Positions 1,002-30,648 are shown, counted from the stretch's first letter. The stretch is DNA of 32,000 nucleotides from Candidatus Karelsulcia muelleri (GCF_022985615.1 NZ_CP094965.1:120001-152000); one strand, 5' to 3'. The notes: generated from the letters alone by a model not told the origin. Program-made: numbers and translations.

Positions 1002-1033
1002 ATCTTCTAGAATCTGTATCTTCTAGAATCTAA
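1002..1033. repeat. 16-bp tandem duplication (ATCTTCTAGAATCTGT / ATCTTCTAGAATCTAA) in non-coding DNA downstream of tRNA-Gln
   Basis: Direct reading: two adjacent copies with 14 of 16 positions identical. A GTAAAGAAT x2 duplication lies just upstream. Confidence 0.85.
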
Positions 1034-1223
1034 ATCTAAAACCCGTCAAAGAAGAAATAGCAAAAAGATCGAGATTATTAATCTATATAAAGATAAACAA
1101 TTTCATGTTTATCATAGAGGAATTTTAATTGATAAAACGATTTATTAGAAAGGGAGAGTCTTTAAAAGAAAGACTAATGACTGTAATAGCAATAATTAAT
1201 AATTATAATTAATAAAATTATAA

Positions 1224-1700
1224 TTAATAATTATTTTTAGCAGAATTTATTATTTTTTCTTTACTCGGGTACCAAAGTTTAATTAAGTTTTTGGCATAAG
1301 GAGCTGGAGTATCTTCTAAAGTAATTCTTTTGATTGGAGCATCTAAGTAATCAAAAGCATATTTTTGTACTAAATAAGTAATTTCAGATGAAATAGAACA
1401 AAATGGCCAAGCTTCTTCTAGAATAATTAATCTATTAGTATTGTTTTAATGATTACATCATTAATAGCTGATTTTAAAAGCCCTTTAGCATCATATGCAT
1501 TAGATGGAACTACTACTTTTAATCCAGGACAATGAGCATACAAATTCTCTAAAGATTGTGAATGTGTAGCACCCAATTGACCAGCAAATCCTGTAGGGCA
1601 TCGAAATACTATTGGTAGTTGACCTCCACTCATTTGTCGGATTTTAGCAGCATTATTTATTATTTGATCTATAGCTACTAATGAAAAAAGTCATAAATTA
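1224..1700 (-). pseudogene. pdhB: pyruvate dehydrogenase E1 beta subunit remnant (N-terminus lost, internal deletion, frame changes)
   Basis: Minus-strand fragments translate as [77 protein letters not shown] and, in another frame, [70 protein letters not shown] (stop at 1224-1226). These match the middle and C-terminal parts of E1-beta. About 470 bp remain of a gene I expect to be near 1 kb. The junction lies near 1430-1445, and a 1-nt frame problem sits near 1690. No start codon or N-terminal domain remains before the rpoD stop at 1721. Confidence 0.8.
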
Positions 1701-1720
1701 ATTTTTTTTATCTTTGACTT

Positions 1721-2647
1721 TTAATATAAGAAAGAAATTAATTTTCGAAATTTAGAGGTATGTCTTAGTCTTTTTAAAGTATGGATTTCGATTTGTCTAC
1801 ATCTTTCACGAGTTAATTTTAAGATTTTAGCTATTTCTTCTAATGAATGAGGGTAACATCCTAGACCAAAATGAAGTTTAATAATTTTAGCTTCTCTCTC
1901 GGGTAGAGTTTTTAAAACGGATTGGATTTCTTCTTTAAGGGAATCCAATTCTAATTTTTCTTCTGCATTTTCACAATTTTTATTTGTTAAAATTTCATAC
2001 CAGTTAACTGGTTCTTCTTCTTCATTCAATGGAGCATCTAAAGAAGGTAGTTTATATGAGTTTAGTAGGGCTTCATCTACTTCTTTTTCTGTACATTTTA
2101 ATGTGTCGCTTATTTCTTTTATAGTGGGTTTTATTTTGAATTTTTGTTCGAATTTTAAAATGAATTTATTTACTTTATTATAAAATGCTATCTTATTTGT
2201 TGGGCACCGTATTCCACGAGATTGTTCAGAAATAGCTTGTAATATCGATTGTCTAATCCACCAAACGCAATATGAAATGCATTTGTATCCTTTTCGTTCA
2301 TCAAATCTACATATTCCTTTTATTAATCCCATATTGCCTTCATTAATTAAATCACTAAAGCTCAATCCTTGGTTTTGATATTTTTTAGCTATAGAAACTA
2401 CAAAACGAAGGTTGGATTTTATTAATAGATCAATACATTTTTTAGCTATTTTTTTTTCATATTGAGTTGCATTTTCATTATATCCCCTTCTAATTTTTCT
2501 AGCCAAAATTATTTCTTCTTTATAAGATAATAATTTAATTTTTACTATTTCCTCTAAGTATTTTTCAATAGTTTCTTCATCTAAATTTTTGTATAATTTC
2601 TGTTTTTTCTTTTGGATCTGAGGTCTCATAGGTTTGTTTAATATCAT
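1721..2647 (-). CDS. rpoD: RNA polymerase primary sigma factor (sigma-70 family, short Bacteroidota-like form)
   Basis: 308-aa ORF. Region 2 reads NLRFVVSIAKKYQNQGLSFSDLINEGNMGLIKGICRFDERKGYKCISYCVWWIRQSI. Region 4 reads EREAKIIKLHFGL...SLEEIAKILKLTRERCRQIE. Confidence 0.9.
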   Translation of the reverse strand: MILNKPMRPQIQKKKQKLYKNLDEETIEKYLEEIVKIKLLSYKEEIILARKIRRGYNENATQYEKKIAKKCIDLLIKSNLRFVVSIAKKYQNQGLSFSDLINEGNMGLIKGICRFDERKGYKCISYCVWWIRQSILQAISEQSRGIRCPTNKIAFYNKVNKFILKFEQKFKIKPTIKEISDTLKCTEKEVDEALLNSYKLPSLDAPLNEEEEPVNWYEILTNKNCENAEEKLELDSLKEEIQSVLKTLPEREAKIIKLHFGLGCYPHSLEEIAKILKLTRERCRQIEIHTLKRLRHTSKFRKLISFLY

Positions 2648-2648
2648 T

Positions 2649-4787
2649 TTAAGTATTAGTATTATTTAAGTATTTATTTGAGAATATCATTTTCCCATTT
2701 TTATTGTCTACTCCCAAATATTTTACTAAGATTATATCTCCAATTTTTAAAAAATCTTCTAATCTATCATATTTCTGAAAATTAATTTCAGAAATATGTA
2801 ATAGGCTTTCTATATGTAATAGGCTTTCTACACCTTTATAAATTTCAATAAATACTCCGAATTCTTTGATAGATCTAACTCTTGCCTTATATATATTTCC
2901 AATTTTAGGAATAAAAATCAGAGATTTTATTACTCTTACTGCTTTTTTAATTTCCTCATTTTTTTTTCCAATTATTTCAATACGTCCTAAATTATTCTTT
3001 TCCTCGATAAAAATACTTGTATTAGTTTCATGTTGAATGTCAGTAATTTTTTTTCCACCATGGCCTATCACAGTGCCTATAAAGGATTTAGGTATAGTGA
3101 AAGCATAAATTTTTGGAGCCTGAGGTTTAAGAAATAATCTAGGTTTTGGTATAGTTTTTAACATTTTGCCTAAAATAAATAATCTCCCAATTTTAGCCTT
3201 TAAAAGGATTTTGGCTAAAATTTCATGATTCAAACCTTCAACTTTCACATCCATTTGACATGCAGTAATTCCTAGTTTAGTCCCTGCTATTTTAAAATCC
3301 ATATCTCCCCAAAAATCTTCTTCTCCTAAGATATCTGATAGTACGATTTTTTCTCCAGTTGCTTTATTGATAATTAAGCCCATCGCAATTCCTGCTACTG
3401 GTCTAATAATAGGTATTCCAGCATCCATCAAGGCTAAAGTACTTGCACATACTGTAGCCATTGAAGAGGACCCATTAGATTCTAAGACATCTGCTACTAT
3501 TCTTATAGTATATGGATTATTACTTGGCAGTATATTCTTTAAAGCTCTTTGAGCTAAATTCCCATGTCCTATTTCACGACGTGAAATACCTCTAATAATT
3601 CTTATTTCTCCTGTAGAAAAAGGTGGAAAATTATAGTGTAAATAAAATTTTTGTTGATCTTGCTCAATTACATCTTGCTCAATTACAGAATCTATTTTCT
3701 TAACGTCTGAAGAGGACCCTAAAGTAATGGTAGATAAAGCTTGTGTTTCACCTCTGGTAAATAAGGCGGAACCATGAACTTCAGGTAAAAAATCCACTTT
3801 ACACCAAATATCTCTTATTTTATTAAAATTACGTCCATCTAGCCTTTGTTTTTTTTTAAACATTAAATCAAGAATAATTTTCTTTTTTAATTCGTTAAAA
3901 TAATATTTTATTTCATTTTCACTGTCCTTAGGCATTTTTTGTTTTACTTTTTTTAATAAAGTTTCTAATTTTTCATTTCTTTTTTGTTTATTATAAAATT
4001 TATTATAAAGTTTTGTTATATTATATTTTATTAATTTTATTATTTTATCATTAAAAAAATTTTGACCTTCTTTTTTCTTGATTATAGTTGTTTTTTTAAG
4101 TTTAATTTTTTTTCTTAATCGTTTTTGAGCTGATATTTGATATTTAATATGTTTGTGAGCATATTTTATAGCTTTTAGAAGTTCAAATTCAGAGATTTCT
4201 TTCATTTCACCTTCTATCATAATAATTGAACGGTTAGACCCACCTATAATTAACTCAAAACTTGAGTTTTTAAGTTGTTCTATTCCAGGATTTAATACAA
4301 AAGAATTATTTACTCTAATTATTCTTACTATTGAAACTGGTTCTGTAAAAGGGATTTTAGAAATATATAATGCAGAAGAAGCTGCGAGACAGGCTAAAAC
4401 ATCTGGTAATATCTTTTTATCATAAGATAAAAGAGAAATCATAATTTGAATATCTTTATAGAAGTTTTTGGGAAAAATGGGTCGTAATACACGGTCTATA
4501 AGTCTCATCGTCATTATTTCTTCTTCTGTACATCTGCCTTCTCTTTTAAGATATCTCCCCGGAATTTTACCTATCGCTGAATATTTTTCTCTATAATCTA
4601 TTGTAAGTGGTAGAAAATTTACACCTTCTTTTTCTTCTTTTGAAATTACTACTGTAGCCAATAAAATTGTATTTCCCATTCTGATTATAACTGAACCATT
4701 AGCTTGCTTGGCTAATTGGCCAGTTTCAATATTTATATATTTTCCATCATTTAAAAATATTTTTTCTTTTATTAATTTTGTAATCAT
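2649..4787 (-). CDS. pnp: polyribonucleotide nucleotidyltransferase (PNPase)
   Basis: 712-aa ORF with two RNase PH domains (GRCTEEEIMTMRLIDRVLRPIFP; RREIGHGNLAQRAL; SNGSSSMATVCASTLALMDAGIP), a KH domain (IGTVIGHGGKKI) and a C-terminal S1 domain (GNIYKARVRSIKEFGVFIEI). It lies directly downstream of rpsO, as in the classical rpsO-pnp arrangement. Confidence 0.95.
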   Translation of the reverse strand: MITKLIKEKIFLNDGKYINIETGQLAKQANGSVIIRMGNTILLATVVISKEEKEGVNFLPLTIDYREKYSAIGKIPGRYLKREGRCTEEEIMTMRLIDRVLRPIFPKNFYKDIQIMISLLSYDKKILPDVLACLAASSALYISKIPFTEPVSIVRIIRVNNSFVLNPGIEQLKNSSFELIIGGSNRSIIMIEGEMKEISEFELLKAIKYAHKHIKYQISAQKRLRKKIKLKKTTIIKKKEGQNFFNDKIIKLIKYNITKLYNKFYNKQKRNEKLETLLKKVKQKMPKDSENEIKYYFNELKKKIILDLMFKKKQRLDGRNFNKIRDIWCKVDFLPEVHGSALFTRGETQALSTITLGSSSDVKKIDSVIEQDVIEQDQQKFYLHYNFPPFSTGEIRIIRGISRREIGHGNLAQRALKNILPSNNPYTIRIVADVLESNGSSSMATVCASTLALMDAGIPIIRPVAGIAMGLIINKATGEKIVLSDILGEEDFWGDMDFKIAGTKLGITACQMDVKVEGLNHEILAKILLKAKIGRLFILGKMLKTIPKPRLFLKPQAPKIYAFTIPKSFIGTVIGHGGKKITDIQHETNTSIFIEEKNNLGRIEIIGKKNEEIKKAVRVIKSLIFIPKIGNIYKARVRSIKEFGVFIEIYKGVESLLHIESLLHISEINFQKYDRLEDFLKIGDIILVKYLGVDNKNGKMIFSNKYLNNTNT
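2794..2829. repeat. perfect 18-bp tandem duplication inside pnp (adds ESLLHI to the S1-domain region)
   Basis: ATATGTAATAGGCTTTCT occurs twice back to back. The protein reads ...ESLLHIESLLHIS... The duplication is in-frame (6 codons). Confidence 0.9.
3657..3686. repeat. perfect 15-bp tandem duplication inside pnp (adds VIEQD)
   Basis: ATCTTGCTCAATTAC occurs twice back to back. The protein reads ...SVIEQDVIEQDQQ... The duplication is in-frame (5 codons). Confidence 0.9.
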
Positions 4788-4789
4788 AT

Positions 4790-4966
4790 TTATTTTTTTT
4801 TTAGCAATGATTTAATCATTTGTTTTTTTTTAGTAACTTGTTTAATTAAAATTCTATAACTATTATAATCGTGTTGATTTTGTTTTAAATGATTAGTAAT
4901 TCTTTTTATCTTTTTATTTAAGTATAATAGTTGTGCTAGATTGGAACCAGTATCTAATTTTTTCAT
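4790..4966 (-). CDS. rpsO: 30S ribosomal protein S15, unusually short (58 aa)
   Basis: Not in the supplied ORF track (below its size cut-off). My hand translation from ATG 4966 is MKKLDTGSNLAQLLYLNKKIKRITNHLKQNQHDYNSYRILIKQVTKKKQMIKSLLKKK*. It matches the S15 core (DTGS.evQ.A.LT..I..Lt.Hlk.hkkDhhSrRgLl.lv.kRr.ll.YL). A stop codon lies immediately upstream of the ATG. The TAA at 4790-4792 is 2 nt before the pnp start. Confidence 0.7.
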   Translation of the reverse strand: MKKLDTGSNLAQLLYLNKKIKRITNHLKQNQHDYNSYRILIKQVTKKKQMIKSLLKKK

Positions 4967-5009
4967 TTATAATATTTTCTTGTATAAGAATATAAGAAAT
5001 AAATAGAAA

Positions 5010-5267
5010 ATGAAAAAAGGAATACATCCAAAAAATTATAGAATTGTAGTATTTCAAGATATAGCAAGCAAAAAGAAAATATTTTGTAAATCAACAGTAG
5101 AAACTAAAAATGTTATAAAAATTAAAAATAAAGTTTATCCTTTATATAAAATGGAAGTTTCTAGCTTCTCGCATCCAACTTATATTGGTAAACTAAAATA
5201 TATTAATAAAGCCGGTAGAATAGAAAAGTTTAATTCTAGATATAGCTCCTATCTGAAAAAAAGATAA
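5010..5267 (+). CDS. rpmE: 50S ribosomal protein L31
   Basis: 85-aa ORF. MKKGIHPKNYRIVVFQD... and ...SSFSHPTYIGK are typical of L31; no CxxC zinc motif is evident. Confidence 0.9.
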   Translation: MKKGIHPKNYRIVVFQDIASKKKIFCKSTVETKNVIKIKNKVYPLYKMEVSSFSHPTYIGKLKYINKAGRIEKFNSRYSSYLKKR

Positions 5268-5271
5268 TATG

Positions 5272-6276
5272 CTAAGGTTTGATCGAAAATTTATCGAATA
5301 AATTTCGTTCATATTTTAATTTACCAACTAGAGCAATCATAGCTGCATTATCACTTGAAAATTCAAGTTGTGGAAAAAAAGTTTTCCAGTTATTTTCTAG
5401 AGATTTTTTGCTAAAAAATTTTTTTAATCCAAGATTTGATGAAATTCCTCCAGAAAAAACTATATTTTTTATTCCAGTTTTTTTAACAGTTTGATTTAAT
5501 TTATCAAATAATATCTCAAAAACAGTTTCTTGAAAAGAAGCACAGATATCATTAATATTTTGGGAAATAAATTTACTATTTTTTTTAATTTTCTTTTTCA
5601 AGAAATATAAAAAATTAGTTTGTAACCCACTAAAACTAAAATTTAACTTTTTGGCTTTAGGTTTATTAAAAAAAAAGGTTTTCGAATTCCCTAATTGAGC
5701 ATATTTATCTATAATTCTCCCTCCTGGATATTTAAATCCAAGTCTTTTAGCCATATTATCAAAGAGATTTCCTAAAGAAATATCGTTAGAACTACCTAAA
5801 ATTTTAATTTCTAAAAAATCTTTTACTTTTATTATATTAGTATGTCCACCACTTATAGATAAAGAAATAAATGGAAAATTAGGGGGAGTAGAATGTACTC
5901 CTTTAATAAAATGAGCTAAAATATGAGCTTGAATATGATTGACAGAAATTAATGGAATTTGCCAGCACATAGCTAATGATTTTGCAAAAGCACTGCCAAC
6001 TAATAAAGAACCAATTAAACCTGGGAAATTAGTAAATGCGATAGCATTAATAGCATTATTTTTAATTTTTGCCTTTAAAATAGCATTATTAACTACAGAA
6101 ACTATATGCTGAAGATGCAAACTGGCAGCTAGTTCAGGGACCACACCACCAAATTTTTGATGAATTTTTTGAGTTCTTACAATATTTGATAAAACGGTGT
6201 TGTTATTTATAATTGCAGCACAAGTATCATCACAAGAAGTATCTATACCTAAAATAATTAAATTCTTTTTTTTCAT
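5272..6276 (-). CDS. tsaD: tRNA N6-adenosine threonylcarbamoyltransferase (Kae1/Gcp/TsaD family)
   Basis: 334-aa ORF. ILGIDTSCDDTCAAII, VVPELAASLHLQHI, NHIQAHIL, SISGGHTNII and FSGGISSN are the conserved TsaD blocks. Confidence 0.9.
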   Translation of the reverse strand: MKKKNLIILGIDTSCDDTCAAIINNNTVLSNIVRTQKIHQKFGGVVPELAASLHLQHIVSVVNNAILKAKIKNNAINAIAFTNFPGLIGSLLVGSAFAKSLAMCWQIPLISVNHIQAHILAHFIKGVHSTPPNFPFISLSISGGHTNIIKVKDFLEIKILGSSNDISLGNLFDNMAKRLGFKYPGGRIIDKYAQLGNSKTFFFNKPKAKKLNFSFSGLQTNFLYFLKKKIKKNSKFISQNINDICASFQETVFEILFDKLNQTVKKTGIKNIVFSGGISSNLGLKKFFSKKSLENNWKTFFPQLEFSSDNAAMIALVGKLKYERNLFDKFSIKP

Positions 6277-6287
6277 GGTAAAAAGAT

Positions 6288-6295
6288 TACTTTTG
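6288..6295 (+). promoter_or_regulatory. possible Bacteroidota-type -7 promoter box (TAnnTTTG) ahead of rpsL
   Basis: TACTTTTG lies 26 nt upstream of the rpsL ATG, in the 44-bp divergent tsaD/rpsL spacer. I found no convincing -33 TTTG partner, and the motif is expected often by chance in DNA this AT-rich. Confidence 0.25.
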
Positions 6296-6320
6296 TACTT
6301 AAAGACAGTTCAGTTCTATA

Positions 6321-6695
6321 ATGCCTACAATTCAACAATTAATAAAAAAAGGTAGAAAAAAAAGAAAAAATACAAGTAAATCTTTAGCCTTAAATCATTG
6401 TCCACAACGTAGAGGAGTATGTCTTAGAGTATATACAACTACACCAAAAAAACCGAATTCTGCTATGAGAAAAGTTGCAAGAGTACGTCTAAGCAATGGA
6501 AAAGAAGTAAACGCTTATATACCTGGTGAAGGCCATAATCTTCAAGAACATTCAATAGTTTTGATAAGGGGAGGCCGAGTAAAGGATTTACCAGGAGTAC
6601 GTTATCATATAATTAGAGGAGCTTTGGACACTTTAGGAGTTAAAGATAGAAAGAAATCCCGTTCAAAATATGGAACAAAAAAGAAAAGTAAATAA
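6321..6695 (+). CDS. rpsL: 30S ribosomal protein S12
   Basis: [14 protein letters not shown]...[74 protein letters not shown] is a canonical S12. Confidence 0.97.
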
Positions 6696-7165
6696 TGAGA
6701 AAATTAAAAAAAAAAAAAATAATATACGAACCAGATCCAAAATTTAAAGAACCATTAGTTACAAGATTTGTGAATCATTTAATGAAACATGGTAAAAAAA
6801 AATTAGCCTATAGAATATTTTATAATTTTATAGATGAATTAGAAAAGATCAATAATAATAAAAAAGGAATAAAAATTTGGAAAAAAGCTTTAAAAAATGT
6901 GACTCCACAAGTCTATATAAGAAGTAAACGGATAGGAGGGACAAAAATAAATATACCAATTATTCTACCAAAAACCTTACAATTAACTAAAGCTATGAAA
7001 TTACTTATTAATAGTTCGAAAGAAAGAAAAGAAAAAGCAATGTATAAGAAATTAGCAGGAGAAACCTTAGCAGCTTACAAAAAAGAAGGAAGAGCAATAA
7101 AAAAAAAAGAGAATATGCATAAAATAGCTGAATCCAATAAAGCCTTTTCACATATAAAATTTTAA
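6695..7165 (+). CDS. rpsG: 30S ribosomal protein S7
   Basis: 156-aa ORF. DPKFKEPLVTRFVNHLMKHGKKKLAYRIFY and the C-terminal KKKENMHKIAESNKAFSH match S7. TAATG overlap with rpsL. The N-terminus contains an A14 run (6706-6719). Confidence 0.93.
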   Translation: MRKLKKKKIIYEPDPKFKEPLVTRFVNHLMKHGKKKLAYRIFYNFIDELEKINNNKKGIKIWKKALKNVTPQVYIRSKRIGGTKINIPIILPKTLQLTKAMKLLINSSKERKEKAMYKKLAGETLAAYKKEGRAIKKKENMHKIAESNKAFSHIKF

Positions 7166-7195
7166 AAAACATCACATATAAAATTTTAAAAAACA
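7148..7195. repeat. perfect 24-bp tandem duplication spanning the rpsG stop codon
   Basis: TCACATATAAAATTTTAAAAAACA occurs twice back to back. Copy 1 holds the last rpsG codons and its TAA (7163-7165). Copy 2 repeats them in the rpsG-fusA spacer. Confidence 0.9.
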
Positions 7196-7202
7196 AAATA
7201 AA

Positions 7203-9287
7203 ATGGGAACAAAGTTAAAATATACAAGAAATATTGGCTTTGCTGCTCATATAGATGCTGGTAAAACCACTACGACAGAAAGAATATTATTCTATACTGG
7301 AATAAATCACAAACTTGGAGAAGTTCATGAAGGGACTGCTACTATGGATTGGATGGCACAAGAACAAGAGAGAGGAATAACAATAACTTCTGCTGCTACA
7401 CGTTGTGAATGGAAAAATAATGATAAGATATATAAAATTAACATTATAGATACACCAGGTCATGTAGATTTTACGGTGGAAGTTGAAAGATCGTTAAGAA
7501 TATTAGATGGCTTGGTGATTTTATTTAGTGCAGTGGATGGGGTGGAACCCCAATCAGAAAATATTTGGTTACAAGCTGACAAATATAAAGTACCCAGAAT
7601 TTGTTTTATTAATAAAATGGATCGTCAAGGTGCAAGTTTTTTTGAAGTTTGTGATCAAATAGAAAAAGTACTAGATACTAATTGTTTGATCTTACAAATT
7701 CCTATAGGGAATGAAGAAAATTTTAAAGGAATTGTAGATATAATTTCTAATAAAGCCTTTATATGGAATGAAATTGACTTTGGCAGAACCTTAAAAGAAA
7801 TCCCAATTCCTTCGAATTTAATAAAATTGACTGAAGAATATCGTAAAAAAATGATAGAAAGGTTAGCTGAGGGTGATAGTAAACTTTTTGATAAATACTT
7901 TGATTCAAAAAACCAAATCACTGAAGAGGAGATAATAACTACTATAAAAAAACAGACCTTAAAACTGGAAATAACTCCTGTTATTTGTGGTTCAGCTTTC
8001 AAAAATAAAGGAATACAATATATTTTGGATGCAATATGCAGATTTCTGCCCTCACCGATAGAATGTAAAAAGATATACGGTTATAGTGTGAAGGAAAAAA
8101 AAAAAAAAAAGATTATTCCAAAGATTAATAACCCTTTTTCAGCTTTAGCATTTAAAATTTCTTCTGATCCTTTTGTTGGAAAATTGACTTTTTTTAGAGT
8201 ATATTCAGGAAAAATAAAATCTGGATCTTATGTTTTAAACAGTAGAACAAATAAGAAAGAAAGGATTTCAAGAATTTATCAAATGCATGCTAATAAACAA
8301 AATCCTATTAATTTAATTAAAACTGGTGATATTGGTGCAGCAGTAGGGATTAAAAATATTAAAACTGGAGATACTCTATGTGATATTAATAATCCAATTT
8401 TTTTAGAAAAGATATTTTTCCCAGATACAGTAATTGGCTTAGCTATTGAACCTAAATACAAATCAGATATAGATAAAATGAGTATGGCACTATCAAAATT
8501 AATAGTAGAAGATCCCTCATTACAAATTCGTAATGAGAAAACCACTGGACAAACAATAATTTCAGGAATGGGAGAGTTACATTTAGAGATTATTCTTGAT
8601 AGAATGAAAAGAGAATTTAACGTTGAAGTTAATAAAGGAAAGCCCCAAGTAGAATATAAAGAAATATTAACTAAAAAAGTTCTTCACAGAGAAATATATA
8701 AAAAACAAACTGGTGGAAAAGGTAAATATGCTGATATTCTATTTCAGATTGAACCAATAAAAAAAGATTTCCAAGGCTTAAAATTTGTAAACAAAGTAAA
8801 AGGAGGAAATATTCCGACAGAATTTATTCCTTCAATAGAAAAGGGATTTAAAGAATCTTTAAGAAATGGGCCTTTAGCAGGATACGAAATAGAAAAAGCT
8901 AAAATTATTTTACTTGATGGATCATATCATACAGTAGATTCCGATCAACTATCTTTTGAGTTAGTTAGTAAAATAGGGTTTAAAAATGCAGCTAAAAAAG
9001 CTAATCCATATCTTTTAGAACCTTTTATGAAGTTGGAAGTTTTTACTCCTCAAAAATATATGGGTATTATTGTTGGTGATCTTAATCGTAGAAGAGGTGT
9101 AATTCAAGGAATGGAAGATAAGCGAAAAAATGTAAAAATTATTAAAGCAGTAGTTCCACTCTCTGAAATGTTTGGATATGTCACTTCTTTAAGGACTTTA
9201 TCTTCGGGAAGAGCCACCTCAATAATGATGTTTTCTCATTATCAGAAAGCCCCTGAAAGGATTTGTAATAAAATAATATATAAATAA
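7203..9287 (+). CDS. fusA: translation elongation factor G
   Basis: 694-aa ORF. G1 AHIDAGKTT, G3 DTPGHVDF and G4 NKMD are present, with full domains II-V. It contains an A16 homopolymer at 8095-8110. Confidence 0.97.
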   Translation: MGTKLKYTRNIGFAAHIDAGKTTTTERILFYTGINHKLGEVHEGTATMDWMAQEQERGITITSAATRCEWKNNDKIYKINIIDTPGHVDFTVEVERSLRILDGLVILFSAVDGVEPQSENIWLQADKYKVPRICFINKMDRQGASFFEVCDQIEKVLDTNCLILQIPIGNEENFKGIVDIISNKAFIWNEIDFGRTLKEIPIPSNLIKLTEEYRKKMIERLAEGDSKLFDKYFDSKNQITEEEIITTIKKQTLKLEITPVICGSAFKNKGIQYILDAICRFLPSPIECKKIYGYSVKEKKKKKIIPKINNPFSALAFKISSDPFVGKLTFFRVYSGKIKSGSYVLNSRTNKKERISRIYQMHANKQNPINLIKTGDIGAAVGIKNIKTGDTLCDINNPIFLEKIFFPDTVIGLAIEPKYKSDIDKMSMALSKLIVEDPSLQIRNEKTTGQTIISGMGELHLEIILDRMKREFNVEVNKGKPQVEYKEILTKKVLHREIYKKQTGGKGKYADILFQIEPIKKDFQGLKFVNKVKGGNIPTEFIPSIEKGFKESLRNGPLAGYEIEKAKIILLDGSYHTVDSDQLSFELVSKIGFKNAAKKANPYLLEPFMKLEVFTPQKYMGIIVGDLNRRRGVIQGMEDKRKNVKIIKAVVPLSEMFGYVTSLRTLSSGRATSIMMFSHYQKAPERICNKIIYK

Positions 9288-9289
9288 AT

Positions 9290-9583
9290 ATGTTAAATTA
9301 TAAAATTAAAATAAAAGCATTTGACGGCTATATATTAAACCTATCAGTAATAAAAATTATTAATTACATTTCAAAGCAGAATATAAAAGTTATTGGACCA
9401 ATTACCTTACCAACTAAAAAAAAAATATATACCATTTTAAGATCTCCTCATGTACATAAAAAATCAAGAGAACAATTTAAATTGTTCATCCATAAAAGAT
9501 TTTTAGTGGTATATAATGTAAAAAAGATTTTAAAACCAATTGATCTCCCTAGTGGAGTAAAATTAGAAATAAAAAAATGTTAG
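9290..9583 (+). CDS. rpsJ: 30S ribosomal protein S10
   Basis: 97-aa [26 protein letters not shown] is the S10 signature, and the gene follows fusA as expected. Confidence 0.92.
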
Positions 9584-10224
9584 GACTAATTGGAAAGAAG
9601 ATAGGTATGACTAGTTATTTTAATAAATTAGGTTACTGTATACCCTGTACAGTAATAAAAGCTGGACCTTGTACAGTATTACAAAAAAAAAGTATAAAAA
9701 AAGATGGCTATTATTCTATTCAACTAGGGTTTGAAGATAAAAAAAAGAAAAAAACTAATAAACCTTTATTAGGCCATTTTAAGAAATTTAACTCCTCTCC
9801 GAAAAAAAGAATATTTGAATTTGCAGGTAATTTTTTAAATTCTCCAGGAGATATAATAAAAGTAGATTTATTTAAAGAAAATGATAAAGTAGACATAGTA
9901 GGAAAATCGAAAGGTAAAGGATTTCAAGGGGTTGTAAAGCGTCACGGTTTTTCAGGAGTGGGTGAAAAAACACATGGTCAACATAATCGTTCTCGTGCAC
10001 CTGGTTCAATTGGTGCAGGTTCCAATCCATCAAGAGTGTTCAAAGGGACCCGAATGGCTGGAAGAATGGGTGGAAAAAGAAGAACGATAAAAAATTTAAA
10101 GATTTTAAAAATAGATTTTAAAAGAAATTTATTAATAGTAAAAGGTTCAGTACCCGGTCACCAAAATTCTTATTTATTAATAAAAATAAAATTGGATAAA
10201 AATGATAATAGAAATTTTAAATAA
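9577..10224 (+). CDS. rplC: 50S ribosomal protein L3
   Basis: [15 protein letters not shown]..., [19 protein letters not shown] and [33 protein letters not shown] match L3. Confidence 0.95.
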
Positions 10225-10849: not shown

Positions 10850-10854
10850 AAAAG

Positions 10855-11172: not shown

Positions 11173-11173
11173 A

Positions 11174-12001: not shown

Positions 12002-12009
12002 TAATAATT

Positions 12010-21796: not shown

Positions 21797-21903
21797 TTTA
21801 TCGCATTGTTTGTTTTTAAACAAACAATGAGGAAAGTAAAGTATGTTAAGTATAAGTATAAGTATAAGTATAAGTATAAGTATGTTGATTTATCGCATTG
21901 TTT
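21788..21903. repeat. duplicated copies of the rnpB 5' segment separated by a (GTATAA)5 microsatellite
   Basis: A 50-nt block GTATGTTGATTTATCGCATTGTTTGTTTTTAAACAAACAATGAGGAAAGT at 21788-21837 is identical to 21906-21955, the true rnpB 5' end. A 24-nt partial copy lies at 21880-21903, and an 8-nt start (GTATGTTA) lies at 21841-21848. GTATAA x5 occupies 21850-21879. Confidence 0.92.
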
Positions 21904-22225
21904 AAGTATGTTGATTTATCGCATTGTTTGTTTTTAAACAAACAATGAGGAAAGTCTGGAATCACTAGGGATAACGCAACGGGTAACTCCCGTACATCGT
22001 GAGATGAGGAATAGTGCAACAGAAAGTATGTACAGTTGAGCTGTAGTGAAATCATGTAAACTCTGTGTTGTGAAATGCCAAATATACCAGAAGTATAGTA
22101 GTATAGTTCATCCCTAACTAAATATCTGCTAACTAAATATCTGGGGGGTAGGCAGATCGAGATAAAGGGTAACTTTTATCCTAGATAAATGATAAATTAA
22201 ACTGAATCCGGCTTATAACATACTT
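21904..22225 (+). ncRNA. rnpB: RNase P RNA (bacterial type A-like, reduced)
   Basis: The conserved blocks are present: GAGGAAAGTCTGG (CR-I/P4 5' strand), ACAGAAAGTATG, and AAACTGAATCCGGCTTATAACATACTT (CR-V/P4 3' strand plus P1 3' strand). The 5' AAGTATGTT and 3' AACATACTT pair as P1. Confidence 0.85.
22114..22143. repeat. perfect 15-bp tandem duplication inside the RNase P RNA gene
   Basis: CTAACTAAATATCTG occurs twice back to back, between the conserved core blocks of rnpB. Confidence 0.9.
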
Positions 22226-22229
22226 TTTT

Positions 22230-23906
22230 TTAAAAATATTTCTCTATATTATTTATATCTAATAAGAATAAGATTTTTTGTTTGAATTTTAATAAATTAT
22301 CAATTTTTAATATTTGTTTTATTAGCTTCCTTATTGTTAAGGAAGCAATCTTTTGTTTTGTTTCTAATTTATAAAAATTATATATATTTTTATATATTAA
22401 TTTTTCAATGATTTTATCATCTTGGTAAATATAAAGATCATATAATAACCTATATACATATATTTTTTTTAAAAACTTAGGAGAATAAGTAATTGAAATA
22501 GAATTTTCAAAACATTTTATTTTAAAACCAAAATTAATTAAAATTTCTATAATTTTGGTTTTAGTTTTTTTAGTAAAAAATTTATTCAATTTAATATTTA
22601 TCGGTGGGTATAATTTATAGATTTTGTGTTTTTTTATTTCTTTTTTAAACTTATCCTCTAAAATTATTTTATAGACTCTATCTTTATGAATAATTAAAAC
22701 ACCAAAATCTAAAAGACATAATATATATTTTTTATAGATCTTAAATTGGGTAAAATCCAGATCTATTTTCTTAAGATCTATTTTCTTAAGAAATATTTTA
22801 TTAAGAAATATTTTCTTAAGAAATATTTTATTAAGAAATTCTTGACAATTATTATTTAGGTTGCGGTTTTTTTCTTCTTTATCTTTTTTTTTAGAGTAAA
22901 ACTTAAAAATATTCTGTAGGCCTAAATATTCTTTAATTATTATATTTATATTTTTACAAATTTCTGACTCTGATTTAATGAGTATTTTGTTTTTGGATTG
23001 ACAAATATTAATTTCAATTTGTTTGGTTGGAATAGTAAGAAATAAAAAATAATTTGGTTTATTAGTTTTGTTTATTAGACCGTTATAGGCTTTAATAATA
23101 GACTTGTGAATTCTTTTGTTTACTACGTATCTATTATTAACAAACAAATAATAATTCTTAAATTGAGTATTAAAAAAACTTGTAGAAGTGATATATCCTT
23201 TTATAAGAAATAATTTATCTTTTTTAAAAACTTTGATTAAGACATTTTTATAATATTCGCCAAAAATTTTAATTATTCTATATTTTAGATTTGATTTTTT
23301 TAAACTGGTAATTATCTTATTATTATGCATCATAACAAAATTAATATCAGGGTGTGAAAGAACTATCTTATTAAATTCTGATATGATATATCTTAATTCA
23401 ATATGGGCAGATTTTAAAAAGTTTTTTCTATTGGGGAAATTGTAAAATAAGTTTTTCACATATATACTAGTACCATTTAATAAATTATTTAATAATACAG
23501 GGGGATATTTAAGCTTTTGATTTTCTAATGTTAAGAAGACTCCAAATTCTGATTTGGTTTTTTTAGTGTATATTTCTACCTGGCTAACTAAAGAAATATA
23601 GTATAAAGCTTCACCTCGAAAGCCTTTAGTATTTAGTGATTTGATATCTTTAAGAGAATATAATTTGGAAGTATAAAATCTCCTAATACTATTTTTCGCT
23701 TCTAAATGATTCATTCCATCACCATCATCTATAACATTAATTAAATCTTTCCCACCATTCAATAATATCAATTTAATATTTTTTGAATGTGCATCAATTG
23801 AGTTTTCTAATAATTCTTTTACTACAGAAGCTGGTCTTTTAATTACATATCCTGCTGAAATTTTATTTGAATCTTGTGTGGGTAGAATTTTTATGGTATT
23901 TTTCAT
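22230..23906 (-). CDS. mutL: DNA mismatch repair protein MutL homologue (N-terminal GHKL ATPase recognisable, C-terminal domain degenerate)
   Basis: The N-terminus reads IKILPTQDSNKISAGYVIKRPASVVKELLENSIDAHSKNIKLILLNGGKDLINVIDDGDGM...KGFRGEAL. In the C-terminal part I cannot find DQHA(x)2E(x)4E: the aligned position reads LIIHKDRVYKIILED. I also cannot find a CPHGRP-like motif. Confidence 0.8.
   Translation of the reverse strand: MKNTIKILPTQDSNKISAGYVIKRPASVVKELLENSIDAHSKNIKLILLNGGKDLINVIDDGDGMNHLEAKNSIRRFYTSKLYSLKDIKSLNTKGFRGEALYYISLVSQVEIYTKKTKSEFGVFLTLENQKLKYPPVLLNNLLNGTSIYVKNLFYNFPNRKNFLKSAHIELRYIISEFNKIVLSHPDINFVMMHNNKIITSLKKSNLKYRIIKIFGEYYKNVLIKVFKKDKLFLIKGYITSTSFFNTQFKNYYLFVNNRYVVNKRIHKSIIKAYNGLINKTNKPNYFLFLTIPTKQIEINICQSKNKILIKSESEICKNINIIIKEYLGLQNIFKFYSKKKDKEEKNRNLNNNCQEFLNKIFLKKIFLNKIFLKKIDLKKIDLDFTQFKIYKKYILCLLDFGVLIIHKDRVYKIILEDKFKKEIKKHKIYKLYPPINIKLNKFFTKKTKTKIIEILINFGFKIKCFENSISITYSPKFLKKIYVYRLLYDLYIYQDDKIIEKLIYKNIYNFYKLETKQKIASLTIRKLIKQILKIDNLLKFKQKILFLLDINNIEKYF
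22759..22839. repeat. 15-bp tandem array (about 5.4 units) inside mutL
   Basis: The units are AGATCTATTTTCTTA x2 followed by AGAAATATTTT(A/C)TTA x3, plus a partial unit. They encode FLNKIFLKKIFLNKIFLKKIDLKKIDL in the linker between the N- and C-terminal domains, in-frame. Confidence 0.9.
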
Positions 23907-25414: not shown

Positions 25415-25421
25415 TAAAAGA

Positions 25422-25453
25422 ATATTAAGACCTTGAAATATTAAGACCTTGAA
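25422..25453. repeat. perfect 16-bp tandem duplication covering the 3' acceptor end of tRNA-Arg
   Basis: ATATTAAGACCTTGAA occurs twice back to back. Copy 2 contains the tRNA 3' acceptor strand (GACCTTG on the + strand). Copy 1 repeats it in the lysS-tRNA spacer. Confidence 0.9.
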
Positions 25454-25517
25454 GGGAGTTGAACCCTTACTCTTCTGATCCGTAGTCAGATGCTTTATCC
25501 AATTAAGCTACAAGGCC
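25444..25517 (-). tRNA. tRNA-Arg (anticodon ACG)
   Basis: The reverse complement GGCCTTG TA GCTT AATTGGATA AAGC A TCTGA CTACGGA TCAGA AGAGT AAGGG TTCAACT CCCTT CAAGGTC T folds as a 74-nt cloverleaf with anticodon ACG. Confidence 0.85.
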
Positions 25518-26647: not shown

Positions 26648-27742
26648 ATGGCAGAGATAATTTACATGCCACGTTTAAGTGATACTATGAAAGAAGGTAC
26701 AATAGTAAAATGGTATAAAAAAGTAGGAGAAAAAGTATTAAATGGAGAAATTTTAGCAGAAATAGAAACAGATAAAGCTATTCAAGAATTTGAATCCGAA
26801 TATAAGGCTACTCTTCTCTATATAGGAGTTAAAGAAGGAGAAAAAGCAAAAGTAAATGATATTTTGGCTATTATGGGTGAAAGAAATGAAAATATAGATT
26901 ATTTAATAAAGAAGAATAAGAATAAAAAAATTTTAGTATCCCCATTAGCAAAAAAAATAGCTTTAGAAAAAGGTATCAAATTAAAAACCTTAAAAGGAAG
27001 TGGACCAAAAAACAGAATTGTTAAAAAAGACATAATAAAAAGTATCAAAACAAAAAATAATAAAAAATATAAAATTAAAAATATTTCTAATATAAGGAAA
27101 ATCATTAGTGAACGCTTATTAAAATCAAAAAAGATTTCTCCACATTATTATTTATTTATCGAAATTCCTGCAGATAATTTAATAAGATTTAAAAAATATA
27201 TTAATAAAAAATATACTAGTAAAATTTCTTTTAATGATTTAATAGTGAAAGCTACTGCTTTATCACTTAAAAAAAATCAAAAAATAAATTCTTCATTGAA
27301 GAAAGAAAGGATTATATATCACAAAGATATTAATATAGGTATTGCTGTTTCCTTACCGGAAGGACTAATTGTACCGGTAATAAATACCGTGGAAAAAAAA
27401 TCTTTAATAAAAATTTCCAAAGAAATAAAAGAAAAAATAAAAAGATATAGAAATAAAAAAATTTCTAACAATGAATTAGAAGGAAGTACTTTTACAATTT
27501 CTAATTTAGGTATGTTTGGGATAGATTGTTTTACTTCTATAATAAATCAACCTAATTCGAGTATTTTATCAGTAGGAAGTATTCAAAGAAAACCTATAGT
27601 TGATAAAAACAAAATAAAAATAGGAAATACTATTAAATTTACTTTAGCTTGTGATCATAGAATTATAGATGGTGTAATAGGTAGTACCTTTTTACTTACT
27701 TTAAAAGAATACTTATTAGAACCAATTACTATGTTAATTTAA
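26648..27742 (+). CDS. dihydrolipoamide acyltransferase (2-oxoacid dehydrogenase E2 component)
   Basis: The lipoyl domain (MPRLSDTMKEGTIVKWYKKVGEKV..GEILAEIETDKAIQEFES), the E3/E1-binding domain (VSPLAKKIALEKGIKLKTLKGSGPKNRIVKKDI) and the catalytic domain with LACDHRIIDGVIGSTFL are all present. It lies directly downstream of pdhA. Confidence 0.92.
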   Translation: MAEIIYMPRLSDTMKEGTIVKWYKKVGEKVLNGEILAEIETDKAIQEFESEYKATLLYIGVKEGEKAKVNDILAIMGERNENIDYLIKKNKNKKILVSPLAKKIALEKGIKLKTLKGSGPKNRIVKKDIIKSIKTKNNKKYKIKNISNIRKIISERLLKSKKISPHYYLFIEIPADNLIRFKKYINKKYTSKISFNDLIVKATALSLKKNQKINSSLKKERIIYHKDINIGIAVSLPEGLIVPVINTVEKKSLIKISKEIKEKIKRYRNKKISNNELEGSTFTISNLGMFGIDCFTSIINQPNSSILSVGSIQRKPIVDKNKIKIGNTIKFTLACDHRIIDGVIGSTFLLTLKEYLLEPITMLI

Positions 27743-28255
27743 TTTAGTAAGTAATCTTTTTTTGTTTTTAGGAATCTTTTTTAAGAACTCTATTCCATTA
27801 TTTTTAAATTCGAAAATAATGTTTTTAATACCATTTGTAAGAACGAGATATTGGCTTTTGAATCTCAAATAATATTTCATTATTTGATCAAAAGATTTAG
27901 ATGAAATCTTTACTTCAGGAGATTTACATTCAACCATTATAAATGGTCTTTTTTTTTTAAGAACTAGAATATCTATCCGATTTTTAATATTATAAAAAGT
28001 TGAATGGAATTCGACATATATTTCATGAACATTATAGCCTCTATTTTTTATTAGATAATAAATTATCTTTTGTCTCACTAATTCTTCTTTAGTTAAAAGA
28101 TAATATTTTTTTCTAATTAAGCAAAAAACGTACATTTTACCGTTAAATGTTTTTATCTTATTTTTTATATTACATTTATTCAATAGCTTGTAATTTCTTT
28201 TTTTTATATGATTATGATTAATCTTACAAATATTAAAATTAAAGAAATTAAACAA
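27734..28255 (-). CDS. HsdR_N-like (PD-(D/E)XK fold) domain protein of unknown function
   Basis: 173-aa ORF. LTKEELVRQKIIYYLIKNRGYNVHEIYVEF....NRIDILVLKKKRPFIMVECKSPEV....DQIMKYYL....YLVLTNG fits the pattern of type I restriction enzyme R-subunit N-terminal-domain-only proteins (E..VRQ...yL......i.vE.....R.Di.v......p.l.vECK......Q...Y.......tNG). The start is uncertain because the first 48 nt overlap the holA 5' end. Confidence 0.65.
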   Translation of the reverse strand: MFNFFNFNICKINHNHIKKRNYKLLNKCNIKNKIKTFNGKMYVFCLIRKKYYLLTKEELVRQKIIYYLIKNRGYNVHEIYVEFHSTFYNIKNRIDILVLKKKRPFIMVECKSPEVKISSKSFDQIMKYYLRFKSQYLVLTNGIKNIIFEFKNNGIEFLKKIPKNKKRLLTKLN

Positions 28256-29062: not shown

Positions 29063-29967
29063 TTATAGGAGGTGGTCCAGCAGGATATACGGCAGCCATT
29101 TATTTAGCTCGTGCAGAAATAAAACACCTTCTTTTTACAGGCTTTAAACCAGGTGGACAATTGATATCAACTAATAAAATAGAAAATTATCCTGGTTTTC
29201 CTGATGGGATATCTGGTTACAAATTAATGGAATCTTTTAAAGCCCAAAGCGAAAACTTCGGGACTAAGGTAAAAGATAATAGTGTAGTAAAAATTAATTT
29301 TAATATAATAAAAAATTGGCATGAAATTATCTTAGATAATTCTTTAAAAATAAAAACCAAAACACTAATTATAGCGACTGGAGCTTCTCCTAGATATTTA
29401 AATATTGAGAATGAAAAAAAATTAATTGGAAAGGGTATTTATACATGTGCAAATTGTGATGGCTTTTTTTTTAAAGGGAAAAAAGTAGCAGTAATTGGTG
29501 GAGGGGATAAAGCAGCAGAAGAATCTATTTATTTAGCTAATATTTGTAAAAAAGTATATCTAATAATAAGAGATAAAAAAATGAAAGCTTCAAAAATTAT
29601 GCAAAAAAAAGTTTTAAACATTAAAAATGTTGAAATATTTTATTATCATAAAGTTATAAAAATAATTGGAGAAAAAAAAATAAAAGCGATTTTTTGTAAA
29701 AACAGAAAAAATAATAATAATTACTTATTTAAGGTGGCAGCTCTTTTTTTAGCTATTGGGCAAATTCCAAATAGTCTTATTTGTAAACCAAATCTAAAAT
29801 TAGATAAATCTGGATATATAATTACAAAATATACAATTACTAATATTCCTGGAATATTTGCAGCAGGAGATGTGCAAGACACAAGATATCGACAAGCAAT
29901 CACCTCAGCTGGATCTGGTTGTATGTCTGCAATAGAGGTAGAAAAATACCTTATTAAAGTTCAATAA
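29026..29967 (+). CDS. trxB: thioredoxin-disulfide reductase
   Basis: 313-aa ORF. The FAD site is DCIIIGGGPAGYTAAIYLAR, the redox centre is CANCDGFFF, the NADPH site is VAVIGGGDKAAEE, and GIFAAGDVQD follows. Confidence 0.94.
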   Translation: MSNREREIFDCIIIGGGPAGYTAAIYLARAEIKHLLFTGFKPGGQLISTNKIENYPGFPDGISGYKLMESFKAQSENFGTKVKDNSVVKINFNIIKNWHEIILDNSLKIKTKTLIIATGASPRYLNIENEKKLIGKGIYTCANCDGFFFKGKKVAVIGGGDKAAEESIYLANICKKVYLIIRDKKMKASKIMQKKVLNIKNVEIFYYHKVIKIIGEKKIKAIFCKNRKNNNNYLFKVAALFLAIGQIPNSLICKPNLKLDKSGYIITKYTITNIPGIFAAGDVQDTRYRQAITSAGSGCMSAIEVEKYLIKVQ

Positions 29968-29990
29968 CCAACCTTATTAAAGTTCAATAA
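29948..29990. repeat. duplication of the last 20 nt of trxB, including its stop codon
   Basis: ACCTTATTAAAGTTCAATAA lies at 29948-29967 (trxB 3' end plus TAA) and again at 29971-29990, separated by CCA. Confidence 0.9.
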
Positions 29991-30175
29991 AGAATATAAA
30001 AGAAAAAATAAAAGAAAAAATAAATATTAGATACTTTATTAGATACTTAGAAGTTTTCTTTTCTTATCATGGATTAAGTACAAACAAACAAACATAACAA
30101 AGTACAAATAAACAAACAAACATAACATAACATAACATAAGTAAGTAAGTACAAACAAGTAAGTAAAGTACAAAC

Positions 30176-30247
30176 ATTATTTACATTTTTAATTCTTTTA
30201 TTATTTACATTTTTAATTCTTTTATTATTTACATTTTTAATTCTTTT
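30176..30247. repeat. perfect 24-bp tandem repeat x3 (ATTATTTACATTTTTAATTCTTTT)
   Basis: Direct reading: three identical adjacent units in the trxB-ilvC spacer. Confidence 0.9.
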
Positions 30248-30260
30248 TTCTTTTACAAAT

Positions 30261-30471
30261 AGCAGTTAGCTGCTAATCAGCAGTTAGCTGCTTATCAGCA
30301 GTTAGCAGCAGTTAGTTAGCAGCAGTTAGCTGCTAATCAGCAGTTAGCAGCAGTTAGTTAGCAGCAGTTAGCTGCTAATCAGCAGTTAGTTAGCAATCGT
30401 TAGCTAATGCTAATCAATCAATCAGCAAGCAGTTTGCTAATCAATCAATCAGTTAGTTAGCTAATGCTAAG
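30261..30471. repeat. relatively GC-rich minisatellite built from AGCAGTTAGC / TGCTAATC / TTAGC modules, with a 42-bp higher-order unit
   Basis: The region reads as A(AGCAGTTAGCTGCTAATC) A' B(AGCAGTTAGC) C(AGCAGTTAGTTAGC) A B C A C, followed by degenerate variants (..CGTTAGCTAATGCTAATCAATCAATC..). The B-C-A block (42 bp) occurs twice in tandem. All six frames contain stops. Confidence 0.9.
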
Positions 30472-30588
30472 TTTTAATAAGTATTTCTTAAAAAAGATAT
30501 TTATTATTTTATTATTTATTACTTTTATATTAAAAAAAGTTTTTTAGCGATTATTAATAAATTGTTGTAAACTAGGATCTTTATTAGG

Positions 30589-30648
30589 ACTTACTTACTT
30601 GTGTTTACAGTAACTTGTTTTTACAGTAACTTACTTGTGTTTACAGTA
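30589..30648. repeat. three tandem variants of an ACTT(ACTT)GTGTTTACAGTA unit
   Basis: The units are ACTTACTTACTTGTGTTTACAGTA / ACTTGTTTTTACAGTA / ACTTACTTGTGTTTACAGTA. The reverse complement resembles the GTAAGTAAGTACAAACAAGTAAGTAA tract at 30141-30176. Confidence 0.8.

Follow-up and report, generated by a model that had tools for sequence, protein, structure and literature searches.

The stretch of DNA considered here, referred to as the window, comprises 32,000 nucleotides (nt) of a Candidatus Karelsulcia muelleri (hereafter Sulcia) genome (NZ_CP094965.1:120001-152000, positions counted from its first letter), and short tandem duplications are scattered through its genes, gene ends, spacers and RNA genes. 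The window has a G+C content of 25% and carries, in order, rpsT, rpsP, rpoD, pnp, rpsO, rpmE and tsaD, then the str, S10, spc and alpha ribosomal operons, followed by rsmH, rnpB, mutL, a class-II aminoacyl-tRNA synthetase (aaRS) gene, tRNA-Arg, acoA, the E2 gene, trxB and ilvC. All open reading frames (ORFs) in the window were intact on translation in a check of the gene map, the coding fraction is 89%, and rnpB and the tRNAs were confirmed with Rfam and ARAGORN. The rpoA gene matches solely Ca. Karelsulcia muelleri of planthoppers (DICMUL, 84% amino acid (aa) identity; OPOL2, 66%), and the sequence belongs to the Sulcia of a Pyrops-type fulgorid planthopper, with which an acoB pseudogene, as in the Pyrops genomes of PMC10333215, agrees. 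For the three Pyrops Sulcia genomes described by Deng et al. (2023, PMC10333215), Nanopore reads had been assembled with Canu, and medaka and Pilon were used for polishing.

The close genomes used for comparison were CP094964.1 (155,888 bp), CP094963.1 (156,700 bp; compared over window positions 1-16729 only), CM132443.1 (152,970 bp) and a lineage represented by Illumina-only Logan contigs (SRR318646xx runs), with DICMUL (a repeat-poor Sulcia of Dictyopharidae) and OPOL2 as outgroups. Two further lineages were included, namely CP138191 (117.7-kb genome) and CM132442 (159-kb genome, MutL 69% identical to that of the window), the latter examined over CM132442.1:135251-156978. All compared lineages have a G+C content of 24-26%. 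Alignments were made with mafft --auto, and inserted blocks were judged by a periodicity test and direct inspection. At the nucleotide level, the window differs from CP094964 by 0.19% (99.8% identity), from CP094963 by 0.3-0.4%, from the Logan lineage by ~0.9%, from CM132443 by 1.0-1.6%, from DICMUL by ~6% and from OPOL2 by ~12%. Over the 32 kb, gene order is collinear between the window, CP094964, CM132443, DICMUL and OPOL2, with no inversions or rearrangements.

Tandem duplications and their excess over chance

The duplication loci are as follows (strand given for those in or at genes).

1002-1040, after tRNA-Gln: imperfect 16-bp unit in 2.2 copies (1002-1037), then AATCTA in 2.3 copies
2794-2830, minus strand, pnp: perfect in-frame 18-bp unit in two copies, aa ~653-665, within the S1 domain envelope
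3657-3687, minus strand, pnp: perfect in-frame 15-bp unit in two copies, aa ~367-377
7148-7195, plus strand, rpsG stop codon: perfect 24-bp unit in two copies; rpsG ends at 7165, protein unchanged
12608-12647, plus strand, 3' end of rplV: perfect, frame-shifting 19-bp unit in two copies
13302-13314, plus strand, rpsC: in-frame 6-bp unit (TATCTC) in two copies
16106-16132, plus strand, rplF: perfect in-frame 9-bp unit in three copies, aa 57-65
20354-20439, plus strand, C-terminal region of rpoA: in-frame units of 6 bp (20354-20366), 9 bp (20369-20386) and 15 bp (20409-20439), each in two copies
21786-21955, plus strand, rsmH stop codon and 5' end of rnpB: composite, with a 52-bp perfect repeat at 21786-21837 and 21904-21955
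22114-22143, plus strand, interior of rnpB: perfect 15-bp unit in two copies
22759-22839, minus strand, mutL: in-frame 15-bp array of ~5 copies (91% matches), aa ~356-383, between the N- and C-terminal domains
25421-25453, minus strand, 3' end of tRNA-Arg: perfect 16-bp unit in two copies; the tRNA-Arg gene (25444-25517, minus strand) is intact
29948-29990, plus strand, trxB stop codon: 20-bp perfect repeat with a 3-bp spacer (23-bp period); trxB ends at 29967
29996-30048, downstream of trxB: two neighbouring 12-bp duplications, in 2.4 and two copies
30076-30650, convergent trxB-ilvC spacer: cluster of nested arrays, with ACAA, AACAT and AAGT microsatellites, a 24-bp unit in three copies (30176-30247), a 42-bp unit in 2.7 copies (30278-30389), a 27/31-bp repeat and a 16/20-bp unit in three copies (30593-30649)

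A sequence-only reading of the same DNA had listed 15 such items, all of which were found at or adjoining the sites and in the gene contexts that it named, although some of them need qualification: the repeat after tRNA-Gln is present as a 16-bp unit but is imperfect, at 2.2 copies, the duplication described as 50 bp at rsmH/rnpB was measured as the 52-bp perfect repeat with nested arrays, and the 6-bp item in rpoA exists in a size class that lies near the level of noise.

The excess of the repeats over chance depends strongly on unit length. Perfect adjacent repeats were counted and compared with shuffled sequences, expected counts being the range across Markov orders 1, 3 and 5. For units of at least 15 bp, 14 repeats were observed where 0-0.005 were expected, followed by 5 against 0.05-0.07 for units of 12-14 bp, 11 against 1.4-1.8 for units of 9-11 bp, and 81 against 36-44 for units of 6-8 bp. 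After merging into loci, 22 had units of at least 9 bp and 14 had units of at least 12 bp (~0.07 expected for the latter). Shuffling codons within each gene gives an expectation of 2.1 repeats of at least 9 bp inside coding sequence (CDS), where 11 were observed. Composition-matched shuffling, which the sequence-only reading had itself proposed as a control, thus leaves the units of at least 12 bp in the window more than 100-fold over expectation. The 6-8 bp class is about half noise, at only ~2x above chance, hence the 6-bp item in rpoA is by itself no evidence, and one or two of the 9-bp repeats in CDS could also be of chance origin.

Within proteins, the insertions fall at sites of different kinds. 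Those in pnp and rplF lie inside Pfam domain envelopes, while the rpoA copies lie in a C-terminal tail without a detectable alpha-CTD; the proposal that all in-frame insertions sit in linkers, which holds for mutL and the rpoA tail, was therefore rejected, as it does not hold for pnp and rplF. The rsmH/rnpB locus is composite, with a nested (TAAGTA)6 array at 21847-21883 and a 26-bp unit in two copies at 21877-21929, the functional rnpB starting at 21903; its repeat period is 118 bp in the window and 74 bp in CP094964. Upstream of the real rnpB there are two incomplete pseudo-copies of its 5' end (P1-P3 region; 21786-21837 and 21877-21902); transcription of these copies, if it occurs, would call for additional 5' processing of the RNase P RNA precursor. 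The 15-bp copy in the interior of rnpB is located in the hairpin that follows the conserved GCCAAAUA element, a site at which this RNA already exceeded the Rfam consensus by a large insertion; we take this hairpin to be the peripheral P16/P17 region.

The trxB-ilvC spacer (29968-30908) measures ~940 bp in the window and ~170 bp in DICMUL, and it consists of nested arrays nearly throughout, whose copy numbers differ between the window and CP094964. Its 42-bp units (CAGCAGTTAGCTGCT...) are richer in G+C and have internal palindromes. No Rfam family scored above threshold in this spacer, and a known RNA or element was rejected there, since the only matches were sub-threshold ones attributable to chance. 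The spacer on the far side of ilvC (from 31944) likewise opens with repeats. The copies at the duplication loci are adjacent (in one case 3 bp apart) with nothing inserted between them, and hence they do not have the form of target-site duplications of mobile elements.

Ages, lineage distribution and direction of the insertions

Comparison of the same loci in related strains, as the sequence-only reading had recommended, shows that the duplications are derived. An alignment of the window with DICMUL and OPOL2 shows a single copy in both outgroups for each duplication located between 9.4 and 31.4 kb, with the exception of the 9-bp array in rplF, which grew stepwise: it has one copy in OPOL2, two in DICMUL and three in every fulgorid strain. 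Presence and absence are nested across six lineages. The 15-bp duplication in pnp is common to the window, CP094964, CP094963 and CM132443, and the Logan lineage has a single copy. Confined to the window and CP094964 are, in coding sequence, 18 bp in pnp, 19 bp in rplV, 6 bp in rpsC, 15 bp in rpoA and 45 bp of the mutL array, and elsewhere the 74-bp rsmH/rnpB duplication and the 16 bp at tRNA-Arg. The window alone has the 24 bp at the rpsG stop codon, the 15 bp in rnpB, a 44-bp block upstream of rnpB and, in the trxB-ilvC spacer, 48 bp that amount to two additional 24-bp units; events of this class are the youngest. Other lineages have gains of their own: CP094964 has 9 bp in rpoA (at position 20191), one further mutL unit and a copy-like insertion of 28 bp at the trxB stop codon, CM132443 has spacer arrays of 296 bp (~6-bp unit) upstream of rpsL, (AATGTT)17 after rpsQ and 158 bp (TAGTT/TAGGT unit) between infA and rpmJ (opposite window positions 6286, 13984 and 17993, respectively), and the Logan lineage has private 14-bp duplications.

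Since duplications of different ages sit on different branches, the process is a continuing one, and the single window-wide burst proposed from the sequence alone is not upheld; the perfection of the copies is largely owed to the very low substitution rate of Sulcia. Between the window and CP094964, 61 substitutions were counted alongside 21 indel events, most of which are changes in tandem copy number. The mutL array differs by one copy, the 24-bp array has three copies in the window and one in CP094964, and the 44-bp block upstream of rnpB that is absent from CP094964 includes extra (TAAGTA) copies. The mutL array is 39-57 bp shorter in CM132443, the Logan lineage and DICMUL than in the window.

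Repeat density was measured as the number of loci with units of at least 12 bp per 10 kb. It is 4.4 in the window, 4.0 in CP094964 (40 kb examined), 2.9 in CM132443, 2.0 in CP094963 and 1-2.7 in the Logan contigs, while it is 0 in DICMUL and 0.95 in OPOL2 at the same G+C content, which bears out the earlier impression that such a density is unusual for a compact, usually repeat-poor symbiont genome. CP138191 has 1.85 such loci per 10 kb and CM132442 has 13.4. In CM132442, where the duplication density is thus three times that of the window, several proteins are lengthened (rpoA, 406 aa; E2, 420 aa; aaRS, 546 aa; rplF, 206 aa). In one survey, 56 of 59 Karelsulcia assemblies were free of repeats at the cut-offs of that survey.

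The direction of length change differs between the lineages as well. With OPOL2 used to polarise the indels of a common 21 kb, 34 insertions (797 bp) and 6 deletions (9 bp) were assigned to the window lineage since its split from DICMUL, whereas 8 insertions (49 bp) and 45 deletions (315 bp) fell to the DICMUL lineage (Fisher P = 8e-12). Inside the fulgorid clade, a tally from the event list gives ~21 insertions (~820 bp) and ~5 deletions.

Reading frames, gene ends and decaying genes

Inside coding sequence, the unit lengths follow the reading frame. All 11 perfect in-CDS repeats of at least 9 bp in the window have unit lengths divisible by 3 (binomial P = 6e-6), compared with 9 of the 16 repeats at boundaries and in non-coding DNA. 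The rule, which had been noticed from the sequence alone, was replicated in CM132442, where multiples of 3 make up 35 of 36 repeats in CDS, 4 of 14 at boundaries and 12 of 24 in non-coding DNA (16 of 38 outside CDS), the lone exception in CDS lying 19 nt from the mutL stop codon. The pooled difference between CDS and elsewhere is significant (Fisher P = 2e-9). Repeat density outside CDS is 12 times that inside, and since this gap exceeds the threefold difference expected from the frame alone, many in-frame insertions must be removed as well. Phase-variable contingency loci are not what is seen here, as the in-CDS units of at least 9 bp in the window are all multiples of 3.

At gene ends, in spacers and in rnpB, unit lengths are arbitrary, as had been suggested, and there is a structural reason for this, because a tandem duplication across a boundary leaves one intact end for each gene, so that any length survives. 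The 24-bp and 23-bp copies at rpsG and trxB duplicate the stop codon, with the first copy terminating the protein normally. Likewise, the 74/118-bp duplication covers a former overlap of the last codons of rsmH with the 5' end of rnpB, and its outcome is an intact rsmH end in the first copy and an intact rnpB in the last. The proposal that frame-breaking events are removed from genes holds inside CDS and fails in part at their ends: owing to the 19-bp frameshift, RplV has 111 aa in the window and CP094964 compared with 122 aa in CP094963 and CM132443, and an ancestral 16-nt overlap of rplV and rpsC became a 36-nt spacer. The filter thus leaks at gene ends, with rplV shortened and rpmF apparently lacking a start and having gained a stop.

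The rpmF gene (L32; 1008-1150) looks disrupted. Relative to CP094964 it has a 95-bp deletion with AATC at both end points, by which the start-codon region was lost, and an in-frame change of TAT to TAG at 1146-1148 truncates the frame; in this region, no ORF of more than 27 aa starting with ATG, GTG or TTG is left. The canonical MAHP start no longer lies in frame even in CP094964. The repeat at 1002-1040, which adjoins the deletion that removed the rpmF start, is, to judge from the sequence comparison, the contracted remnant of an array with five copies in CP094964. The neighbouring remnant of acoB (pyruvate dehydrogenase E1 beta; 1233-1720) has seven deletions, 575 bp in total, compared with the intact gene of CP094963, and in CP094964 the gene has decayed in another way, with a 98-bp array of a 21-bp unit and without 120 bp that are retained in the window.

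Further genes in or near the loci are also altered. The infA frame (17857-17988) encodes only 43 aa, which match just positions 32-64 of the 64 in the IF-1 profile, its C-terminal half; the product has 71 aa in CM132442, and in CM132443, where the 158-bp array adjoins, infA was not called. The mutL gene (22230-23906) is an intact ORF whose C-terminal domain falls short of the Pfam threshold. Where the MutL of a free-living flavobacterium has QHLAHQRILYE, the aligned residues in fulgorid and dictyopharid-type Sulcia are HKDRVYKIILED, and comparable changes are found in more distant planthopper Sulcia. The nuclease function of MutL may have been lost clade-wide. On the minus strand at 27734-28255, a 173-aa protein with a match to HSDR_N_2 (E = 3e-29), a domain with a restriction-endonuclease-like nuclease fold, is encoded, and it is kept at the other fulgorid Sulcia loci too. 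In the Logan lineage (~1% diverged), tsaD appears as two ORFs, rplC is divided in just one of the samples, and rpsS was called at 50 aa, with a 5-bp deletion and a 14-bp tandem duplication (net +9); these oddities reflect either frame-breaking events or assembly noise.

Origin of the duplications and their meaning for Sulcia

The sequence-only reading had ascribed the duplications to slippage, an origin for which the junctions give no support. Among isolated two-copy events with units of at least 12 bp, the mean number of extra matched bases at the junction is 1.09, compared with 1.08 for a null drawn from random positions; zero extra bases were found in 36% of events, where 45% were expected, and 0-2 bases in 10 of 11 events. 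Junction microhomology is therefore at the level of chance, the duplications do not start from flanking short direct repeats, and microhomology-mediated slippage was rejected on these match counts. Unit sizes cluster around 12-26 bp, and a locus that has acquired two copies goes on to gain and lose units, as seen in mutL, the 24-bp array, (TAAGTA)6 and the spacer microsatellites.

We consider it likely that the indel spectrum of this clade has shifted to continual de novo tandem duplication, with purifying selection sorting the outcomes. Head-to-tail duplications of ~5-74 bp would arise continually, and the resulting arrays would then gain and lose copies; because duplications would arise far faster than substitutions erase them, copies would look perfect. 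Inside reading frames, only multiples of 3 would persist, at about one twelfth of the non-coding density, while at boundaries, in spacers, in the peripheral hairpin of rnpB and in tRNA flanks any length would persist, as a tandem duplication deletes nothing. The duplications themselves may come from replication-associated realignment of the nascent strand, or from a template switch, in a stripped-down replisome, for which pre-existing repeats would not be needed, and the clade-specific rise may reflect a degraded replisome or repair set. A candidate for such degradation is holA, encoding the clamp-loader delta subunit, of which two of the three Pyrops Sulcia retain only a pseudogene (PMC10333215).

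Several observations weigh against this reading. No gene loss cleanly separates the fulgorid clade from the repeat-poor Sulcia of Dictyopharidae, and the pattern is not accounted for by any one loss. The holA-intact Sulcia of P. clavatus (CP094963) carries the older duplications too, and loss of holA as the sole cause was rejected for this reason. MutL degeneration was also rejected as a cause, because repeat-poor DICMUL-type sequences have a C-terminal motif region that is just as degenerate; mismatch repair is not known to act on loops of 15-70 nt. Textbook slipped-strand mispairing is hard to reconcile with the absence of microhomology. The acoB pseudogene of the window lineage has the seven deletions (575 bp) and no insertion, so deletions continue to arise in unconstrained DNA, and because deletions dominate there, the excess of insertions must in part be a product of selection on functional DNA. 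The ratio of indels to substitutions falls from 0.34 at 0.2% divergence to 0.15 at 1.6% and 0.04 at 6%, which could indicate a recent acceleration, saturation or slow purging. Finally, the analysis covers 32 kb of a ~156-kb genome together with 40 kb of the sister genome CP094964, and the window-only events (rpsG 24 bp, rnpB 15 bp, 44 bp, spacer 48 bp) rest on one Nanopore/medaka/Pilon assembly.

The falling ratio is also what would be expected if many duplications were slowly purged, and hence it bears on the alternative that mutational input is the same as in other Sulcia and that weaker purifying selection or stronger drift fixes mildly deleterious duplications, with no change of the mutator kind. 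The decay of acoB, holA, infA and possibly rpmF in the clade points in this direction, as does the occurrence of repeat-associated indels, with insertions exceeding deletions, in leafhopper Sulcia (PMC7952229). However, drift alone should raise the fixation of deletions too, whereas the direction flips instead (34 insertions to 6 deletions, compared with 8 to 45 in DICMUL for the same genes), and the neutral spacers of DICMUL and OPOL2 are nearly free of such repeats. Drift is thus an improbable explanation of the whole, although it may contribute to fixation without explaining the reversal of indel direction.

Errors of assembly or polishing, introduced by Canu, medaka and Pilon on Nanopore and Illumina data, are a concern because the window, CP094964 and CP094963 come from one pipeline and the four window-only events occur in a single assembly. 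Yet the 15-bp pnp duplication and the rplF array are also found in the independent assembly CM132443, the latter in the Illumina-only Logan contigs as well, and both of these assemblies hold private duplications of a like kind; moreover, all in-CDS events preserve the reading frame, to which errors would be blind, and the DICMUL and OPOL2 assemblies are without such events. An artefact is therefore very improbable as a general account and is largely excluded for the shared events, though less so for the window-only ones. It is still less plausible that the repeats are functional and selected, be it as contingency loci, regulatory iterons or protein-repeat innovation: arrays do cluster around ilvC in two lineages and hairpins are possible in some array units, but the events are scattered across unrelated housekeeping genes, RNAs and spacers, no unit sequence is common to different loci, in-CDS units never switch frame as phase-variable loci do, copy number varies freely between near-identical strains, and no Rfam match was obtained. 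A chance origin from the low-complexity composition of 75% A+T, to which the merely twofold excess of 6-8 bp units and the ~1.6 in-CDS 9-bp repeats expected under codon shuffling would lend themselves, has next to no probability as a general explanation, as it is refuted for units of at least 12 bp (>100-fold over expectation), the outgroups of the same G+C content stand at 0 (DICMUL) and 0.95 (OPOL2) loci per 10 kb and the alignments show real insertions, so that it survives for part of the 6-9 bp class.

The duplication surge is real and statistically strong, and it is of a kind of endosymbiont instability that is already known. The closest known case is that of Portiera aleyrodidarum of Bemisia tabaci, with its syndrome of genomic instability (Sloan and Moran, 2013, PMC3673631; Santos-Garcia et al., 2020, PMC7821994). 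In both, short tandem repeats have proliferated in one lineage of an otherwise static, tiny endosymbiont genome with a repeat-poor sister lineage, the repeats are concentrated in intergenic DNA (here at a 12-fold higher density outside CDS), the usual deletion bias has been lost (here 34 insertions to 6 deletions) and there may be a tie to replisome decay, holA being lost in this Portiera (PMC3673631) and a pseudogene in two Pyrops Sulcia. However, in Portiera of B. tabaci 7-bp microsatellites dominate, inversions are many and dnaQ, a gene that lies outside the window, is lost, whereas here a unique stretch of 9-74 bp is typically duplicated to two copies, in-frame cases in essential genes included, and gene order in the window is collinear with DICMUL and OPOL2. 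Coding density also differs, at ~69% in that Portiera and 89% in the window, where only some spacers are expanded.

Within the genus, leafhopper Sulcia have a repeat-associated indel spectrum (Waneka et al., 2020, PMC7952229; see also PMC13345377). The two cases have in common very few single-nucleotide variants, a dominance of repeat expansion and contraction, insertions at least as numerous as deletions and hypervariable arrays, but in leafhopper Sulcia pre-existing microsatellites account for 96% of the indels and the genomes have stayed poor in repeats, whereas here new duplications of non-repetitive sequence have been fixed at high density, CDS included. It seems that a tendency of the genus has here been taken to an extreme at which duplications are created. 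As in micro- and minisatellite instability, arrays change copy number between very close strains (the window and CP094964).

More general parallels exist outside symbionts. In human DNA, Messer and Arndt are said to have found in 2007 that most short insertions are tandem duplications of adjacent sequence, and short insertions in non-coding chloroplast DNA mostly copy neighbouring sequence. The insertions in the window resemble this general rule in that they copy neighbouring sequence, many of them at non-repetitive sites without obvious flanking homology. The rule, however, concerns background mutation, while here a lineage-specific rise reverses the net direction of indels in a bacterial endosymbiont. 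In-frame internal tandem duplications under selection are known, for example FLT3-ITD, and duplications also arise in rad27/FEN1 or polA 5'-exonuclease mutants, the rad27-type duplications being flanked by direct repeats of 3-12 bp. The size range of 5 to ~100 bp and the restriction to in-frame events where a protein must work are shared with these systems; unlike in the rad27 type, junction microhomology is here at chance.

Literature searches gave no account of such duplications in planthopper Sulcia, and neither the Pyrops genome paper (PMC10333215) nor a planthopper-wide preprint mentions them. Sulcia is the textbook example of a frozen endosymbiont genome, and some planthopper lineages nonetheless gain young duplications with a reversed indel direction and a clean filter by reading frame, which adds to Portiera a second independent case in which deletion bias has been escaped. 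In practical terms, gene lengths, gene ends and spacer lengths are unstable in such genomes, and read-level validation is needed. The lineages form a natural series (0, 4 and 13 loci per 10 kb) in which it can be asked which losses from the replisome or repair set determine the duplication rate. A bolder and as yet doubtful reading is that several planthopper Sulcia, at least the Pyrops/fulgorid clade and, more strongly, CM132442, have independently switched from a deletion-biased spectrum to one of insertion by homology-independent tandem duplication, as a heritable, mutator-like state of a minimal replisome that is possibly tied to clamp-loader decay or host-supplied enzymes. If this were true, essential proteins and spacers would now be lengthening in the symbiont that is regarded as the most stable known.

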